Positions 16,801 to 52,380 of a stretch of DNA of 64,000 bases are shown in pieces. Source of the stretch: Eledone cirrhosa (lineage: Eukaryota). Positions within the stretch are counted from its first letter, which is position 1; every line of letters starts with the position of its first letter. The DNA is taken from contig OZ024746.1 of NCBI GenBank assembly GCA_964016885.1, positions 95,294,001 through 95,358,000 on the forward strand. The letters are read 5' to 3'. Position numbers and translations under genes: made by a program. The notes beneath the pieces were generated by a model that saw nothing but the letters and a program-made list of their open reading frames with translations, ran no database searches and was not told where the DNA came from.

Positions 16801-18065
16801 GGGTTTTTAGAATAATGTTACTCGATAAAGTGCATAACTCGGAGATCATGGTGTCACTCCAGATAAAGCTGCTTCTTCTCTAAGACATCACAACTCCGAT
16901 AGTACAGGCATGTGGTTAGAATGTATCGTGAAAGAATCACTGGACAGATTTTACAGGCAAATCCAACTGGCAGGAGACCCAGGAGTAGACCCTGAGCAAG
17001 ATGGTTGGATAACATCCATGAGCTTGGCTGGTCTCACTTGGGCATAGCTGCTTCTAACAGGACCTGCTGGAAAGAATATTTGAGGACTTTGGCCCCCATG
17101 ACCCTCTAAGGAATAAGTGGGTGAAGAAGATTTAGAGGGATTTAGTAATATATACCCCTGGCAGTGGAGACTTCTGGTGTCCTTGGCCCTAGGGCTACCT
17201 CCCTACTCACCACCATAGGCGCTGAGCTGGCCAGCCGCAGGTGTGAACCCTGCGAGTTGGGATGGCTTTTCCAGTGCGTCTCCCTTGCCTTCTTCCAAGT
17301 GAACGCCTTCTCCATCCTGTCTGCCGGGGCTGTGGGGGGCCCCATCGCGTAACATTCCATATTTAGGTATCTGTGTTCTCACGTGTAGACACTCGTCCTT
17401 TACCATAGTGTTGTGTCCCTAAACGAAGTTTATTTCCTTTAATAATTACAATGTAATTTGTCTGCAGTATGTATACAATGAGATATGATCAAAATGTAGA
17501 CGTAATGTTTCACAGACCACACATTTAAGAGACTGAAATCCTTACTCATTATTAAGCTGGTATTTGGAACATAACAAAGGTTCTTATGTAAAATTATGAT
17601 GGAAGGTTTTTAGATGAATATAAACACTTTAAAACAAACAGTTTTATATCATAGAAAGTTGAACCAGGGCGGTTTCAAGTGGTGTGTTATGAAAAGTGTT
17701 AAGAGGAATATACTTTTACTCCATGCTTAATGCAGACTGTTTATTTTTAGTATCTGGTTTAAATGAAGCAAACAAGTCAAACCCATCCCTCTTTTTAACT
17801 ACTTGTCGATGAATTCAACTTCAAACACATTCCAAACATGTCCATCTGGTATAGTTTTTAACAAGAGTGTTTTCCTTTTTTTTTTTGTTGTGGGTGGGAT
17901 TATAAGATGCGTGATTTGAAGTAGATTTCACTGCTATTTCTAGCACACTGAACGACCAAATGAGCTTCACACATCTGTTTATAATAGAATCTTTTCTACA
18001 TGTGTGTATGTAGCTTCACACATCTGTTTATAATAGAATCTTTTCTACATGTGTGTATATAGCTT

Positions 18066-18432
18066 TATAGCGAGATTACTGGTTGCATGAATGTAACAAA
18101 ACGAGACAATGTTTGTGTATATAATATTTAATTAACGGTAGATAGAATACTTGACATGTCAAAGATAGATGTTAGAATGAAACAAAGTTAGTAGTTACCG
18201 TTTTGATTGCCAGGCAAATGCGGCTGGCAGAGGGCGCCTGGCTAAGGCCAGGCGCCTGTTGGCCAAATTAATGGCAGAGCCAAATGAGAAGACTCTTCGA
18301 CCTGGTGCCGAAAAGGCAAAAAGAGAGAGGAAGCTCAAAGTTGCTAGCTTTATAGGGCTCTGACCGGAAGTTGCAGAAAGGGTTCCACTTCCCGTCTAGA
18401 TCCCAATCAAAACAAGGGAGACAACCGCTACA
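18066..18432 (-). repeat. 3' LTR
   Basis: Preceded on the - strand by PPT-like GGCGGGAGG (18444..18436). Confidence 0.92.
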
Positions 18433-19521
18433 TAACCTCCCGCCAGAATTTTAGTGTATAAAAATCGAAATGAAAATATGTAGCAAGTTGGCGAGAATGT
18501 TGTAACAGGCATGAAAATTACGACAAAAGAATGTTTGGAAAAATCAATGATAGATATCAAGGTAGCCAACCGCTCTTGGCCAGAGCACGACTGGACATCC
18601 ATCTATCCATCACCCAAAGATACAATGTAATAAAGTAAAAGTAATAGAAGAGCTCAAAGTTCAAAATATAGTTCACAGGTGTGCAATCACATGACAGCTG
18701 GAAAGAAAGTGTGTTCCAGAGAATGAATGCAGGTGGTTTCTGTTCTGTGGTATATCGTGAAATTTCCAACCTCCGAATGGATTTTCTCACAGGAAGAGTG
18801 CTGCAAAAATAAATTCTCTGGCTTTGGTGAAGCTGTGTTGATGTATTGCTGTTGCTGTTATATTGCTGTTGCTGCTGCTGTTGTCTCGCTGAGTGAGCGT
18901 ATTCGGTGTTTAAATTCACAGTAAAAAATTTTTTTTTTAGAAAAAATGAGTTGCGCAAAGTGCTAGAAATAGCAGCCGAAGTTGATGGTCGATGTTGAGA
19001 ATGCGTTGACCTGGAAGGGTCAAGAGGCCAGCGACCAGAGAAATAAGCATTCTTAATAAATGCGCGGTTATCAACGGTAAATTTACATTGTAAATTTATA
19101 AACCGGCAAATAGAAGAATATAGCTTAAGGCTGAAGAATCCTTGGGGGAGAAATGCTATCTCTGGCGTGCGGCTGTCTGTGAGAAGAGACATCTCAGTGA
19201 ATCGAGAATTTATGCTGCCTACACGTGCCAATACAAGGTTGAAAAAAAATATTTCTAACGCGCGAGAAAATGATAGTGCAATTTTGAAAGTGACAATGAT
19301 GAAAAAGAAAGGCTTCAATCAGCATAATTATAGGTGTGAACTTTTGGAGAAAAAACTGCCAGCCGCATTTGCCTGGCAATCAAAACGGTAACTACTAACT
19401 TTGTTTCATTCTAACATCTATCTTTGACATGTCAAGTATTCTATCTACCGTTAATTAAATATTATATACACAAACATTGTCTCGTTTTGTTACATTCATG
19501 CAACCAGTAATCTCGCTATAT

Positions 19522-19553
19522 TGGTGACCCTGACGTGATACGAACACGCAGCC
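19522..19553 (-). pseudogene. Reverse-transcribed 3' fragment (about positions 45-76) of mature tRNA-Trp including CCA
   Basis: - strand GGCTGCGTGTTCGTATCACGTCAGGGTCACCA versus tRNA-Trp GGCTGCGTGTTCGAATCACGTCGGGGTCA(CCA). It differs at A58 (to T) and G67 (to A). Confidence 0.88.
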
Positions 19554-19557
19554 GTTC

Positions 19558-19575
19558 ATCACGTCGGGGTCACCA
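19558..19575 (-). other. Primer-binding site complementary to the 3' 18 nt of tRNA-Trp(CCA)
   Basis: - strand TGGTGACCCCGACGTGAT is the reverse complement of the metazoan tRNA-Trp 3' end ATCACGTCGGGGTCA+CCA. Confidence 0.93.
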
Positions 19576-19576
19576 A

Positions 19577-19943
19577 TATAGCGAGATTACTGGTTGCATG
19601 AATGTAACAAAACGAGACAATGTTTGTGTATATAATATTTAATTAACGGTAGATAGAATACTTGACATGTCAAAGATAGATGTTAGAATGAAACAAAGTT
19701 AGTAGTTACCGTTTTGATTGCCAGGCAAATGCGGCTGGCAGAGGGCGCCTGGCTAAGGCCAGGCGCCTGTTGGCCAAATTAATGGCAGAGCCAAATGAGA
19801 AGACTCTTCGACCTGGTGCCGAAAAGGCAAAAAGAGAGAGGAAGCTCAAAGTTGCTAGCTTTATAGGGCTCTGACCGGAAGTTGCAGAAAGGGTTCCACT
19901 TCCCGTCTAGATCCCAATCAAAACAAGGGAGACAACCGCTACA
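19577..19943 (-). repeat. 5' LTR (TATAAA at 19865..19860, GC hairpin 19744..19767)
   Basis: Direct repeat of 18066..18432; followed on the - strand by the PBS. Confidence 0.92.
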
Positions 19944-22900
19944 GCTTCATACATCTGTTTATAATAGAATCTGTTCTACATGTGTGTATGTAGCTTCACA
20001 CATCTGTTTATAATAGAATCTTTTCTACATGTGTGTATGTAGCTTCATGCATCTGTTTATAATAGAATCTTTTCTACATGTGTGTATGTAGCTTCATACA
20101 TCTGTTTATAATAGAATCTGTTCTACATGTGTGTATGTAGCTTCACACATCTGTTTATAATAGAATCTGTTCTACATGTGTGTGTAGTCTTTTAGCTAAT
20201 TCTAAAGTCTAAAGTCTGCCTCTAGCTAGGAAGCTCATCAGGCCAGTACTTATACCGGTTTCCGTGGCACGAAGTGACTGAGAGTACAAGACTTTTCCTT
20301 GGATAGGAGGTTAGTCCTTCGCAGGGTTAAACACCCTCCAGCTATTGCTGGTACTCATTTTCAGCTGCAACGTGAAATGTGTATGAGAGCGTGTCTGTTT
20401 TTACATCTGTGTTTATGTCTCATAATTTAGCAGATTGGCAACAAAGAGATTGATAAAATAAGCACCAGACTTGAAAAAATTAGAGCGATGCCCCAGCATG
20501 ACCGCTTTCTAGTATCTGCAACCAGTAAAAGTATAAAAGAATATATTTTCTTAAAGTGGGTTCCATAAAGGGTTTGTGGTTTCTGCAAGATAAAGTGTAT
20601 TTTAATAAAATGTAATAAATAAAATCTGTTATATGACTAGAGCGGTGCTCCAGCATGACCACCGTCTAATATCTGTAACCAGTAAAAGTATAAAAGAATA
20701 TATTTTCGTACGATAAAGTATCCTTTAATAATATGTAATAAAAATCTGTTATATGTTGTTTTTTTTATCAATATATCTTTCTTTAAAACAAATTTGTTTC
20801 ATCTAACATCATATTAAAATTAGGGTAGTAAGGATTTTCCATAAATTCTAGGTTTGGGTTCAATATTTCTGGGGAAAATTGTATAAGATTTATATACGAC
20901 AAAAATAAGTTTGGAAACCACTGGTATAGAATATTTGTGTGGTTGTGTGGGAAGATGTTTACATGGGTTGGTTATTTAGGTTTTTTTTTGGTTTTATTAT
21001 GTAAAATGAAATTATATGTTATAGGTGTTTTCTGGTGATTCATTATATAATTGATTTTATACCAATAATCTCTTTTTCTGAAATTATGTGAAAGCGTAAC
21101 TATGTTGATTTACTTCCTATTTCTAACTCTGAACCAATGAGAGCGCTTCCTCATATTTTGTTAAGAAAGCAGCCAGTATTTTCCATAAACCTCACCTTAC
21201 CTCAATTTTTTAACGTTTTATCATTTATAATACTCTATATTTACTATTGTATTTTCACAGTAAAGGCTTTATCTCAACATAATATCAAACCTATGAGATT
21301 TTGATGTTTTTATTTATTTTGAGAACAATACCTTAAATCAGTATGAGCAGCCTGTTGTGGCTGGTTTGAAGAGAAAGAGGTGAGAGAATTCTGACCAGAT
21401 ATGGCCGGTCATCAGGTGTGAGCCTCGCGGGCCAGAATGGCTCTTTTAGAGTGTCTCCCTCACCATCACCCAGGGAAACGCCTTATCTATTCTGTCCACC
21501 AGAGTTGTGGAGTGACCAGAGCATGCCCCCCCCCCCATTTGCTTATAATAGTAAGAGAGGCAGTGACTATACCAACATTGCTGAAGTATTTTCTTCTGTT
21601 AGTCTTCATTTAAGGGTTAAAGTTAACACTGTTTATTCCCAATACCCGTGTTTCACTCACAAAGTTGGCTTAAAAACGATTTATAATTACATAAGTATGA
21701 AAAAAAGAGAGATAAAAACAAAATTAAGTAATGAGAAAAAGGGGAAGGGGTAAAGAAGAGCAGATCTGGTTGTATGGCAAAGTAGAATAAATGAGAAAAA
21801 ATAGGAGGAAAAAATGCAAGGATTCTTGGGCCACAGAAGAAGGGGGGGGGGGTCTGGGTTCTGGGATTAGGGTGGAACATTGGATTATGTAATCCTAGTT
21901 ATACTCTGTGGTGTAGTATGGTTATTATTGAATGAGTTTCTTCAGAGCGAACCTCTGGTTGGTTTGGGCAGCAACAACAACACTATTACCAACAATCAAT
22001 GAGGGAGTCACTTGAAATGCTAGAAATAGCAGCTAAATTTCACTCATATCAAATCCTACTGTTTAAACAAAATATAGATTATGTTTTATTAATTAGATAA
22101 TAATTGTTTCTACTTTTGGCACAAGCCAGCAATTACCCAGTACATTACTGGTACTTTATTTTATCGACCCCGTAAGGATGAAAGGCAAAGTTAACCTCGG
22201 CGGGATTTGAACTCAGAATGCCAAGGGACGTAACTCTTTGCGTCAAGCATGGCGTCCGACCCTCCACTGATACTGCCAATCCACCGAATAATAGGGTGGT
22301 GAATTGGCAGAATCGGTAGAGCGTCAGACACCATGCTTTGCAGCATAGAGTTATGACTATGTTCTGAGTTCAAATCCCACCAGCTTTGCCTTTCATCCTT
22401 ATGGGGTCAATAAAATAAAGCACCAGAATTGTACTGGGGTCGATTTAATTGACTTTCCCCTCCCCCCAATTTACTGGCCTTGTGCCTATAGTAGAAATAA
22501 TTAATTAGATAATCATCATCACCATTTAACATCCATTCCCTGCTATGTAGATCTAAATTGGCTAAAAAAAAAAACAAAGATTAGGAGCCCATGTCTTATG
22601 TACCTTTGATTATGTGCCTTGACCTGGTGTTAACCCTTTTGTTACCACATTTCTAATAAAATATATACTGCACACGATTGCCAAATCATTTTGAAAATAA
22701 TCAAGAATTTTGTGAAATTTTGTAAAATAACAGATTTTCTAATTAACCCTTTAGCATTTACATTACTCTATATTTACTATTATATTTTCACATAATTATC
22801 TCATAATATCGAATCTATGATTTTGATATTATTCATTTTGAGAACAATACCTTAATATCGGTATGAGTGGCCAGTTACAGCTGGTTTGAACAGAAAGAGG

Positions 22901-32369: not shown

Positions 32370-33805
32370 TTTAGTATTTTATAATATTTAGTATCTTATA
32401 ATATTTAGTATTTTATAATATTTAGTATCTTATAATATTTAGTATTTTATAATATTTAGTATTTTATATTTAGTATCTTATAATATTTAGTATTTTATAA
32501 TATTTAGTATTTTATAATATTTAGTATTTTATATTTAGTATCTTATAATATTTAGTATTTTATAATATTTAGTATTTTATAATATTTAGTATCTTATAAT
32601 ATTTAGTATTTTATAATATTTAGTATTTTATAATATTTAGTATTTTATATTTAGTATCTTATATTTAGTATTTTATAATATTTAGTATTTTATAATATTT
32701 AGTATCTTATAATATTTAGTATTTTATAATATTTAGTATTTTATAATATTTAGTATTTTATAATATTTAGTATCTTATAATATTTAGTATTTTATAATAT
32801 TTAGTATTTTATAATATTTAGTATCTTATAATATTTAGTATTTTATAATATTTAGTATTTTATAATATTTAGTATTTTATAATATTTAGTATCTTATAAT
32901 ATTTAGTATTTTATAATATTTAGTATTTTATAATATTTAGTATTTTATAATATTTAGTATCTTATAATATTTAGTATTTTATAATATTTAGTATCATATA
33001 ATATTTAGTATTTTATATTTAGTATCTTATATTTAGTATTTTATAATATTTAGTATTTTATAATATTTAGTATCTTATAATATTTAGTATTTATAATATT
33101 TAGTATTTTATAATATTTAGTATTTTATAATATTTAGTATTTTATAATATTTAGTATCTTATAATATTTAGTATTTTATAATATTTAGTATTTATAATAT
33201 TTAGTATTTTATAATATTTAGTATTTTATATTTAGTATCTTATAATATTTAGTATTTTATAATATTTAGTATTTTATAATTAGTATTTTATAATATTTAG
33301 TATCTTATAATATTTAGTATTTTATAATATTTAGTATCTTATAATATTTAGTATTTTATAATATTTAGTATTTTATAATATTTAGTATTTTATAATATTT
33401 AGTATCTTATAATATTTAGTATTTTATAATATTTAGTATTTTATAATATTTAGTATTTTATATTTAGTATTTTATATTTAGTATTTTATAATATTTCGTA
33501 TTTTATAATATTTAGTATCTTATAATATTTAGTATTTTATAATATTTAGTATTTTATAATATTTAGTATTTTATAATATTTAGTATTTTATAATATTTAG
33601 TATTTTAAATATTTAGTATCTTATAATATTTAGTATCTTATATTTAATATTTTATAATATTTAGTATCTTATATTTAGTATCTTATATTTAGTATCTTAT
33701 AATATTTAGTATTTTATAATATTTAGTATCTTATAATATTTAGTATCTTATATTTAGTATTTTATAATATTTAGTATTTTATAATATTTAGTATTTTATA
33801 ATATT
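32370..33805. repeat. 17-bp AT-rich satellite (tttagtatYttataata, with 14-bp variants), about 85 copies
   Basis: Direct inspection of periodicity. Confidence 0.97.
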
Positions 33806-36800
33806 ACAACAGTATTACAGTTTAACAACACAGACAATAGTCACAACACTATTACAGTTTAACAACACAGACAATAGTCACAACACTATTACAGTTTAAC
33901 AACACAGACAATAGTCACAACACTATTACAGTTTAACAACACAGACAATAGTCACAACAGTATTATAGTTTAACAACACAGACAATAGTCACAACACTAT
34001 TACAGTTTAACAACACAGACAATAGTCACAACACTATTACAGTTTAACAACACAGACAATAGTCACAACACTATTACAGTTTAACAACACAGACAATAGT
34101 CACAACACTATTACAGTTTAACAACACAGACAATAGTCACAACACTATTACAGTTTAACAACACAAACAATAGTCACAACAGTATTACAGTTTAACAACA
34201 CAGACAATAGTCACAACAGTATTACAGTTTAACAACACAAACAATAGTCACAACAGTATTACAGTTTAACAACACAAACAATAGTCACAACAGTATTACA
34301 GTTTAACAACACAGACAATAGTCACAACACTATTACAGTTTAACAACACAAACAATAGTCACAACACTATTACAGTTTAACAACACAGACAATAGTCACA
34401 ACACTATTACAGTTTAACAACACAAACAATAGTCACAACAGTATTACAGTTTAACAACACAGACAATAGTCACAACACTATTACAGTTTAACAACACAAA
34501 CAATAGTCACAACACTATTACAGTTTAACAACACAAACAATAGTCACAACAGTATTACAGTTTAACAACACAGACAATAGTCACAACACTATTACAGTTT
34601 AACAACACAAACAATAGTCACAACAGTATTACAGTTTAACAACACAGACAATAGTCACAACACTATTACAGTTTAACAACACAAACAATAGTCACAACAC
34701 TATTACAGTTTAACAACACAAACAATAGTCACAACATTATTACAGTTTAACAACACAAACAATAGTCACAACACTATTACAGTTTAACAACACAAACAAT
34801 AGTCACAACACTATTACAGTTTAACAACACAGACAATAGTCACAACACTATTACAGTTTAACAACACAGACAATAGTCACAACACTATTACAGTTTAACA
34901 ACACAGACAATAGTCACAACAGTATTACAGTTTAACAACACAGACAATAGTCACAACACTATTACAGTTTAACAACACAAACAATAGTCACAACACTATT
35001 ACAGTTTAACAACACAAACAATAGTCACAACACTATTACAGTTTAACAACACAAACAATAGTCACAACACTATTACAGGTTAACAACACAGACAATAGTC
35101 ACAACACTATTACAGTTTAACAACACAGACAATAGTCACAACACTATTACAGTTTAACAACACAGACAATAGTCACAACACTATTACAGTTTAACAACAC
35201 AGACAATAGTCACAACACTATTACAGTTTAACAACACAAACAATAGTCACAACAGTATTACAGTTTAACAACACAAACAATAGTCACAACACTATTACAG
35301 TTTAACAACACAAACAATAGTCACAACACTATTACAGTTTAACAACACAAACAATAGTCACAACACTATTACAGTTTAACAACACAAACAATAGTCACAA
35401 CACTATTACAGTTTAACAACACAAACAATAGTCACAACACTATTACAGTTTAACAACACAGACAATAATCACAACACTATTACAGTTTAACAACACAAAC
35501 AATAGTCACAACAGTATTACAGTTTAACAACACAGACAATAGTCACAACACTATTACAGTTTAACAACACAAACAATAGTCACAACAGTATTACAGTTTA
35601 ACAACACAAACAATAGTCACAACAGTATTACAGTTTAACAACACAAACAATAGTCACAACAGTATTACAGTTTAACAACACAGACAATAGTCACAACAGT
35701 ATTACAGTTTAACAACACAGACAATAGTTACAACAGTATTACAGTTTAACAACACAAACAATAGTCACAACACTATTACAGTTTAACAACACAAACAATA
35801 GTCACAACAGTATTACAGTTTAACAACACAAACAATAGTCACAACACTATTACAGTTTAACAACACAAACAATAGTCACAACACTATTACAGTTTAACAA
35901 CACAAACAATAGTCACAACACTATTACAGTTTAACAACACAGACAATAGTCACAACACTATTACAGTTTAACAACACAAACAATAGTCACAACAGTATTA
36001 CAGTTTAACAACACAAACAATAGTCACAACACTATTACAGTTTAACAACACAAACAATAGTCACAACAGTATTACAGTTTAACAACACAAACAATAGTCA
36101 CAACACTATTACAGTTTAACAACACAAACAATAGTCACAACAGTATTACAGTTTAACAACACAAACAATAGTCACAACACTATTACAGTTTAACAACACA
36201 GACAATAGTCACAACAGTATTACAGTTTAACAACACAAACAATAGTCACAACACTATTACAGTTTAACAACACAAACAATAGTCACAACAGTATTACAGT
36301 TTAACAACACAAACAATAGTCACAACACTATTACAGTTTAACAACACAAACAATAGTCACAACAGTATTACAGTTTAACAACACAAACAATAGTCACAAC
36401 ACTATTACAGGTTAACAACACAAACAATAGTCACAACACTATTACAGTTTAACAACACAAACAATAGTCACAACAGTATTACAGTTTAACAACACAAACA
36501 ATAGTCACAACACTATTACAGTTTAACAACACAGACAATAGTCACAACAGTATTACAGTTTAACAACACAAACAATAGTCACAACACTATTACAGTTTAA
36601 CAACACAAACAATAGTCACAACACTATTACAGTTTAACAACACAGACAATAGTCACAACACTATTACAGTTTAACAACACAGACAATAGTCACAACAGTA
36701 TTACAGTTTAACAACACAGACAATAGTCACAACACTATTACAGTTTAACAACACAAACAATAGTCACAACACTATTACAGTTTAACAACACAAACAATAG

Positions 36801-37610
36801 TCACAACACTATTACAGTTTAACAACACAAACAATAGTCACAACACTATTACAGTTTAACAACACAGACAATAGTCACAACACTATTACAGTTTAACAAC
36901 ACAAACAATAGTCACAACACTATTACAGTTTAACAACACAAACAATAGTCACAACACTATTACAGTTTAACAACACAAACAATAGTCACAACACTATTAC
37001 AGTTTAACAACACAGACAATAGTCACAACACTATTACAGTTTAACAACACAAACAATAGTCACAACACTATTACAGTTTAACAACACAAACAATAGTCAC
37101 AACACTATTACAGTTTAACAACACAGACAATAGTCACAACACTATTACAGTTTAACAACACAAACAATAGTCACAACACTATTACAGTTTAACAACACAG
37201 ACAATAGTCACAACACTATTACAGTTTAACAACACAGACAATAGTCACAACACTATTACAGTTTAACAACACAAACAATAGTCACAACACTATTACAGTT
37301 TAACAACACAAACAATAGTCACAACACTATTACAGTTTAACAACACAAACAATAGTCACAACACTATTACAGTTTAACAACACAGACAATAGTCACAACA
37401 TTATTACAGTTTAACAACACAAACAATAGTCACAACACTATTACAGTTTAACAACACAGACAATAGTCACAACACTATTACAGTTTAACAACACAAACAA
37501 TAGTCACAACACTATTACAGTTTAACAACACAGACAATAGTCACAACACTATTACAGTTTAACAACACAAACAATAGTCACAACACTATTACAGTTTAAC
37601 AACACAAACA
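33806..37610. repeat. 37-bp satellite (acaacaStattacagtttaacaacacaRacaatagtc), about 103 copies
   Basis: Direct inspection; two dimorphic positions. Confidence 0.97.
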
Positions 37611-51847: not shown

Positions 51848-52162
51848 TGGTATGGTATGGTATGGTCTGGTAACTCCTGACAGAGTTGTAGGGGCACCAC
51901 ATTGACATATGGCGTTTCTTGGGCAGTTTAAGCCTGGTGGAGACCATCCCTCCCCAGGCCTAAGTACAGCAAATTTCTTCCAGAGAAAGGAAGAATCGAC
52001 TCAAGTACTAAAACTGGTACTTTTTTTATCGATCTTAAAAGGATGAAAGGCAAAGTTGACCTCGGCGGGATTTGAACTCAGAGAGCAGAGAGCTGGAATG
52101 AATAGCACAAACCATTCTATTCGATGTTTTAACGACACCATTTACACCAACACATCATGGGT

Positions 52163-52234
52163 GATGTGTTGGTGTAAATGGTAGCACAGTGGTCCGGATA
52201 ACCAAAGATGTGGGTTCGACTCCCATGTACGTCA
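52163..52234 (+). pseudogene. tRNA-like sequence (pseudo-tRNA or SINE head)
   Basis: Foldable cloverleaf with A box TGGTGTAAATGG and B box GGTTCGACTCC, followed by a T5 run. Several G-U pairs in the acceptor stem and no U33, so unlikely to be a functional tRNA. Confidence 0.6.
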
Positions 52235-52380
52235 ATACTCATCTTTTTCCATTTCTCCGAGGGTTCTTAACCCCACTATCAGGCTAAATAATTTCTTTAA
52301 TTGCCTTAGTCAAAATACGGCGATTTCTAATAATCTCAAATCAACTCGTTGTTTCGAAAATATTCTTACTATATATATAT

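Follow-up and report, generated by a model that had tools for sequence, protein, structure and literature searches.

Structure of the element

The 54-nt stretch at 19522..19575 is the centre of an inversion within a 1,878-bp non-coding LTR element, which lies on the minus strand of the window (the whole 64,000-nt stretch of Eledone cirrhosa DNA analysed here). The element has identical 367-bp LTRs, an 18-nt PBS, a purine-rich PPT-like stretch and a 4-bp TSD, as in an LTR retrotransposon insertion, and its insertion site is a 49-bp tandem repeat. Behind the 5' LTR and PBS stands an inverted segment of ~200 nt that consists of leader, PBS and the final 165 nt of the LTR. The inversion shows up as an inverted repeat of 184 bp, nearly perfect, and each of its two joints has a short microhomology. 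The features are as follows.

18062..18065, no strand: left copy of the TSD, GCTT, 4 bp, inside the 49-bp tandem repeat
18066..18432, minus: 3' LTR, 367 bp, identical to the 5' LTR
18433..19355, minus: 3' part of the internal region, non-coding; ends in the purine-rich PPT-like stretch adjoining the 3' LTR
19356..19520, plus: the final 165 nt of the LTR in inverted orientation, without a difference from either LTR
19522..19539, plus: genomic PBS of the family with A67 (T at 19531), lying within the inverted segment
19540, plus: base opposite tRNA position 58; T58 in tRNA sense, inherited family-wide
19541..19553, plus: 13-nt perfect complement of tRNA-Trp 57-45; inherited primer over-extension
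19554..19560, plus: native leader GTTC-ATC, in which ATC (19558-19560) is the junction microhomology
19558..19575, minus: PBS adjoining the 5' LTR, G67, at most 18 nt; presumably a fresh primer copy stopped at position 58
19577..19943, minus: 5' LTR, 367 bp
19744..19767, no strand: GC-rich hairpin, 24 nt, in the LTR; the inverted segment ends at the foot of the corresponding hairpin
19944..19947, no strand: right copy of the TSD, GCTT, 4 bp

The inverted LTR copy (19356..19520), together with 19521-19560, stands in place of the ~450-nt leader of ordinary copies. The longest open frame in 18433..19355 (252 aa) has no Pfam match, and no coding remnant of a CHCC Gag motif or of Pol was recognised in the element. 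At 1,878 bp (~2.1 kb in an ordinary copy) it is larger than a TRIM as defined in the available text of PMC10886601 (<1,000 bp, non-coding). Like CsRn1-clade Gypsy elements, it has a tRNA-Trp PBS and a 4-bp TSD. Among the matches listed, it shares nothing beyond the PBS region with the fetched autonomous elements, and no autonomous parent of its family was found among the fetched loci in those matches. Judged by sequence, it would be at most a non-autonomous dependant of a CsRn1-clade Gypsy element.

ARAGORN calls no tRNA at 19522..19575; its sole match in the window starts at 52162, a tRNA-Ser(GGA) (52162-52235) with an unusual anticodon, possibly a SINE or pseudogene. Elsewhere in the window, a strongly strand-skewed 37-bp tandem array of ~100 units occupies 33700-37600.

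An inherited tRNA-Trp complement in the family leader

With tRNA positions counted back from the discriminator base 73, the minus strand from 19553 to 19522 provides 32 nt that match positions 45-73 plus CCA of the host tRNA-Trp gene L085, far beyond chance. Only two differences separate them: at 58 the stretch has T where the gene has A, and at 67 it has A in place of G. The initial annotation had reported two tRNA-derived copies here, one with T at 58 (TTCG-T-ATC) and one with GTTC in front of a perfect 18-nt PBS (19558-19575). The letters of both are confirmed, the former against L085, and the tRNA-like stretch proves longer than was seen, its 8-nt "loop" being tRNA 45-52.

The interpretation of these letters changes once the family is considered. 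Searching the 3.0-Gb genome of the element itself, we obtained 1,321 candidates, scored 40 and examined 28 distinct loci: 25 ordinary copies, the window, one locus with the same joint (L003) and one with a deletion from the PBS end (L006). In 25/25 ordinary copies the LTR is followed by the PBS, an A and the 13-nt tRNA complement (T58), and GTTCATC comes next in 24/25. Complement of the tRNA thus stands directly 3' of the PBS, as in a primer over-extension. Genome-wide, the family leader has 465 exact matches with T58, 5 with C58 and none with A58 or G58, and the family counts at least 465 copies. As T58 and GTTC both belong to the ordinary leader of family copies, both are inherited. The second arm had been read as a tRNA copy that skipped G57-A58, but the letters next to its PBS are ordinary leader in the relatives, and its sequence 5' of position 59 is family leader instead of tRNA copied in the same pass. 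Nor did two separate read-through events take place here, as had been proposed: T58 is inherited, and what looked like a skip is the place where the leader adjoins an 18-nt PBS. Because no A58 revertant was seen in the family, it appears not to have been re-copied past 58.

A sister subfamily has GTTCA behind the extension and then repeats its own LTR end exactly, together with 12 nt of PBS, so that ATT stands after GTTC. Since the sister subfamily duplicates its own LTR end there, the letters after GTTC are LTR-derived and do not represent tRNA 59-61. We had considered GTTC-ATC...GGTCACC as an ancestral tRNA-sense relic and rejected this from ATC onward, given the plain LTR-end/PBS duplicate of the sister subfamily. 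The founder's GTTC itself could, among other possibilities, be a slipped copy of tRNA 44-42. In two sister-subfamily loci (L174, L175) the whole LTR-end/PBS/extension unit is tandemly duplicated.

The PBS of the family carries A67 in 90 and G67 in 10 of the first 100 copies among the matches listed. Host gene-like copies have G67 in 72/74, and only two A67 sequences were found in the host: an A67/A58 gene, from which the family allele could descend, and a single CCA copy with A67. The initial annotation had explained the G67/A67 difference by two isodecoders or an RT error. An A67 host gene does exist, but two isodecoders are not needed, as A67 is the family allele and the junction arm has G67 in 14/14 matches. 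Many family copies (e.g. L014, L017, L062) have a second PBS mismatch, T72, alongside A67; no host gene with both T72 and A67 was found. The over-extension may compensate for a PBS weakened by T72 and A67.

The host genes largely look as had been predicted: A58 is present in 72 of 74 gene-like copies, and none encodes CCA. A native T58, which would have offered another source for the family's base, does occur in two of the 74, both degenerate: L138 (A57/T58) and L076 (G57/T58), the latter differing from the family at 49. L076 (2290-2360) has T at both 37 and 58, the positions misread in retro-copies, either by chance or through conversion by cDNA. Contig C4 has two clusters (L075-L080 and L133-L143) in which tRNA-Trp genes and pseudogenes are tandemly arrayed by the dozen; one array is mostly A57, the other mostly G57.

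A recurrent head-to-head joint

The supposed skip of G57-A58 is a template-switch joint at the 3-nt microhomology ATC. The exact joint is present in 14 matches at 10 loci, some of which may share an ancestor, and with a free gap of 0-30 nt allowed, 9/9 head-to-head joins use the same leader site. The partner LTR ends are of three kinds: 6 matches have an LTR of the same family, and the other 8 have LTRs of two further families that are also Trp-primed. All 14 junction PBSs carry G67, 13 are perfect, and none goes beyond 18 nt (position 59), as would be expected if copying stopped normally at m1A58. A native PBS is retained in 11 matches, 10 of them with A67, and the G67/A67 difference fits a fresh primer copy facing the family allele. 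On our reading, the primer was copied anew into plus-strand strong-stop DNA that ended at m1A58, in keeping with the standard scheme (PMC13191261), and this DNA supplied the partner arm. The length of this fresh arm is 15-18 nt, because the joint is fixed only to within the 3-nt microhomology.

Within ~500 nt of leader, the best pairing site for the PBS is GGTCACC (7 bp), nine letters past the joint. The backward copy ends at the foot of the 24-nt GC hairpin, which suggests a single-stranded template. A link between A67 and fold-back was dropped: the first sample had been biased by a G67 query, and with A67 as the usual family allele (90/100 among the matches listed), 10/11 at the joints is as expected.

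Two loci show further peculiarities. L003 (1530-1580; the same as L066) has seven A-to-G changes on the sense strand within 41 nt of U5, PBS and extension and few elsewhere, a cluster that resembles A-to-I editing of the RNA template. L129 (600-700) represents another head-to-head type, in which two LTR-PBS-extension arms, both T58, are joined via the anticodon stem; this fits self-primed fold-back of a read-through product.

Position 58 in tRNA-Trp copies across the genome

We take the host tRNA-Trp to carry m1A58, a modified G37 and a modified G26, from general tRNA knowledge. As one founder event cannot be tested, all tRNA-Trp copies were surveyed. Matching tRNA-Trp 42-76 with CCA, at most 2 mismatches, against the whole genome gave 45 matches, or 44 after one gene (L128) was dropped. 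These 44 CCA copies run into LTR-end-like sequence, judged by eye for most, and 3 have one change within CCA. Simple grouping by flank similarity places them in 37 lineages. The comparison set comprises 74 gene-like copies from fetched clusters.

Position 58 is non-A in 12/44 CCA-type copies (T 7, C 3, G 2) versus 2/74 gene-like copies (Fisher p=1e-4). Counted by lineage, it is changed in 9/37 versus 2/55 (p=0.006), and across the 37 lineages the 29 other positions together collect 28 changes, compared with 9 at 58 alone (binomial p=3e-6). The runner-up, position 49, is changed in 5 lineages, and the other four A positions in 0, 0, 0 and 1. The excess holds for C58 or G58 alone (5/44 versus 0/74, p=0.006) and without five A57/T58 copies that L138 could have templated (7/39 versus 2/74, p=0.008). 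A wider set (27/64 non-A58) was not used as a test, being inflated by relatives of the window family (16/64 copies).

Most read-through copies (32/44) keep A58, which fits partial modification or correct bypass. Changes at 58 are found in 9/16 A57 copies versus 3/28 G57 copies. This difference is not explained by context, since PMC4787781 reports, in the section available, no effect of the -1 base on the m1A signature. T at 58 is ~15 times likelier than a given background change, and on this ground the family's T58 is very probably of modification origin.

Copy ends and positions 37 and 26

The 5' ends of the 37 lineages lie at 41-44 (6), 35-40 (24) and 27-29 (7), with none at 30-34 and none reaching G26; a match back to ~42 was needed, and shorter copies are outside this count. 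The host tRNA-Trp gene has G at both 37 and 26. In otherwise exact context, non-G37 is present in only two places genome-wide, both CCA copies, i.e. in 2/7 copies spanning 37 versus 0/52 genes (p=0.012). Marks at G37 and G26 are suggestive, not proven. The ends near 37, scattered over 35-40, could also arise from anticodon-loop cleavage, and those at 27-29 from fold-back on the anticodon stem, as seen in L129. A p of ~1e-6 for the 27-29 cluster was set aside because it assumed a naive uniform null. At L101 (1490-1510), a CCA copy has apparently slipped 5 nt across G37 between two short repeats.

Trp-primed Gypsy relatives with an extended PBS

Behind AAN-type LTR ends we found 290 perfect PBS copies, of which 64, in 28 lineages, continue with at least 9 further nt of tRNA complement. 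Two of these lineages, families D and E, are full-length Gypsy families of ~5.6-5.9 kb that encode protease, RT, RNase H and integrase. The extensions of full-length CsRn1-like Gypsy relatives measure 14-22 nt. Pfam domains occur in the order PR-RT-RH-IN in L144 and L146, and the CHCC motif CX2HX9CX3C in 7/10 loci scanned. By motif, domain order and PBS, the autonomous Trp-primed relatives would thus fit the CsRn1 clade as characterised in the accessible part of PMC2582038.

In family D, the extension reaches 45 and A58 is present in 18/18 copies; a further copy (L051) has G58. In family E, it reaches 37-38, and 2/6 copies have T58 on separate branches of a small tree, which hints, in a small sample, at re-copying from the primer. 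One copy of the window family, with identical LTRs, is nested in a family E element (L154:3528-5648).

Tentatively, and with rather less than even confidence, we suggest that Trp-primed Gypsy elements may read through m1A58 often, and that over-extension sequences of 14-22 nt would now be carried by active families and re-copied from the primer. The genome might then serve as a natural, datable tRNA-seq library for the tRNA-Trp of the germ line, in which 58, 37 and 26 would bear readable marks and isodecoders would differ.

Origin of the stretch

We consider it likely (probability about 0.8) that the stretch is an inversion joint in one copy of a large non-coding LTR family, that strong-stop DNA mis-primed on the family's own leader, and that the inherited T58 goes back to m1A58 misread in one ancestral read-through. 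To account for a leader made of PBS, T58, 13 nt complementary to tRNA 57-45 and GTTC, the founder plus strand would have run beyond m1A58 to 45, with A placed opposite m1A, and then switched back to the U5 end, leaving a duplicated LTR-end/PBS behind the extension. The window copy joins a G67 PBS head-to-head to this leader at ATC. Here, strong-stop DNA from the common G67 tRNA could have annealed by its 3' GAT and 5' GGTGACC to ATC...GGTCACC in the leader, copied ~200 nt backwards to the GC hairpin, joined the minus strand at a T-run and integrated normally. Other CCA-type tRNA-Trp copies in the genome are changed at 58 far above other positions; this excess would reflect m1A58, and the end clusters presumably reflect modified G37 and G26.

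The letters alone would also agree with two separate m1A58 read-throughs at the locus, one misincorporating and the other skipping G57-A58, given that GTTC equals tRNA 53-56. We regard this as highly improbable: T58 and GTTC sit in the ordinary leader of the 465 matches, the identical joint recurs with LTRs of other families, and the sister subfamily has ATT after GTTC, where its duplicated LTR end begins. What the two arms preserve is therefore different: in one, an old read-through passed down in the family, and in the other, a strong-stop product of normal length trapped by a template switch. Read-through of m1A58 on a mature, CCA-bearing tRNA-Trp, as originally invoked for both arms, stays the most likely source of T58 in view of the genome-wide enrichment at 58, and falls away for the second arm.

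The same architecture could have arisen with T58 as an ordinary founder mutation or as a copy of a rare host tRNA-Trp with native T58. The two host gene-like copies with T58 speak for this, as does the fact that a single founder event is not statistically testable by itself. It is nevertheless unlikely, because independent copies are changed more often at 58 than anywhere else, to T, C or G, the likelihood ratio of ~15 goes against it, and the sole G57/T58 host copy seen differs at 49 and is otherwise damaged. Less probable still is that the inversion was made at the DNA level after insertion, by replication fold-back or repair, or is an assembly artefact. The near-perfect inverted repeat and the microhomologies at its joints would suit such an event, and no piece from four public read runs aligned to the element spans the inversion, although the reads are mixed from all copies and therefore uninformative. 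Against this, the two arms differ in their PBS allele, and one of the alleles is that of the common tRNA; the joint is found at 10 loci, with different LTR families joined exactly at the PBS end; and the LTRs are identical and the TSD is intact. Statistics support the idea of a genomic record of primer modification at position 58; at 37 and 26 the support is weak.

Relation to known systems

The extended PBS may act like the primer over-extension sequences of lentiviruses and spumaviruses, a candidate function by analogy. In those viruses, tRNA complement behind the 18-nt PBS lets plus strands that pass 58 transfer (PMC13191261, in excerpt). There it serves stops at 54-55 and spans a few nt, whereas here it is three to five times longer, occurs in Gypsy elements and reaches 45 (window family, family D) or 37-38 (family E). 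In the window family it also has a fixed mismatch at 58. Plus-strand strong stop at m1A58 is described as an 18-nt stop, with minor longer products ending at later modified bases (PMC8599865 and PMC13191261, both in excerpt). In these excerpts, products past 54 are unable to complete or integrate; here, longer products have been fixed via template switches.

CsRn1-clade Ty3/Gypsy elements share the tRNA-Trp PBS and 4-bp TSD with the window element, and the CHCC motif and PR-RT-RH-IN order with its autonomous relatives. The part of PMC2582038 available makes no mention of an extended PBS, and the window element differs in being non-coding. In mouse ERVs, the common PBS mismatches the primer and some copies revert (PMC7472051, in excerpt), comparable to G67 in 10/100 family copies among the matches listed. 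As far as that excerpt goes, the mouse study considered changes within the 18 nt and saw no match to modified positions, whereas the record described here lies beyond 18 nt. For Ty1 and Ty3, the excerpt denies that primer sequence is inherited, a statement at odds with the fresh G67 copies found here. Helenus and Ajax TRIMs are likewise non-autonomous LTR elements with tRNA-like sequence; according to the text available (PMC10886601), that sequence lies in the LTR as a promoter, whereas here it is antisense, behind the PBS and CCA-ended.

During reverse transcription, m1A causes arrest and mixed misincorporation (PMC4787781), and methylations of G26 and G37 also disturb copying (PMC8062790). 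Both papers, in the portions available, deal with RNA copied by laboratory enzymes, whereas the pattern described here has become fixed in the genome. The open literature gave no description of a genomic modification record or of a long extended PBS in Gypsy elements; older subscription work on aberrant strand transfer was outside its scope, and priority is uncertain.

Most work on how the enzyme deals with modified primer bases has been done on HIV-1 and in vitro. Although the locus itself is a dead, rearranged copy, the set around it provides in-vivo germ-line evidence on how an LTR retrotransposon enzyme behaves at such bases. Because overshoot can found high-copy families, overshoot far past 54 is not always a dead end. 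For species that lack tRNA sequencing, the results suggest that an assembly by itself could be enough to infer tRNA modification.
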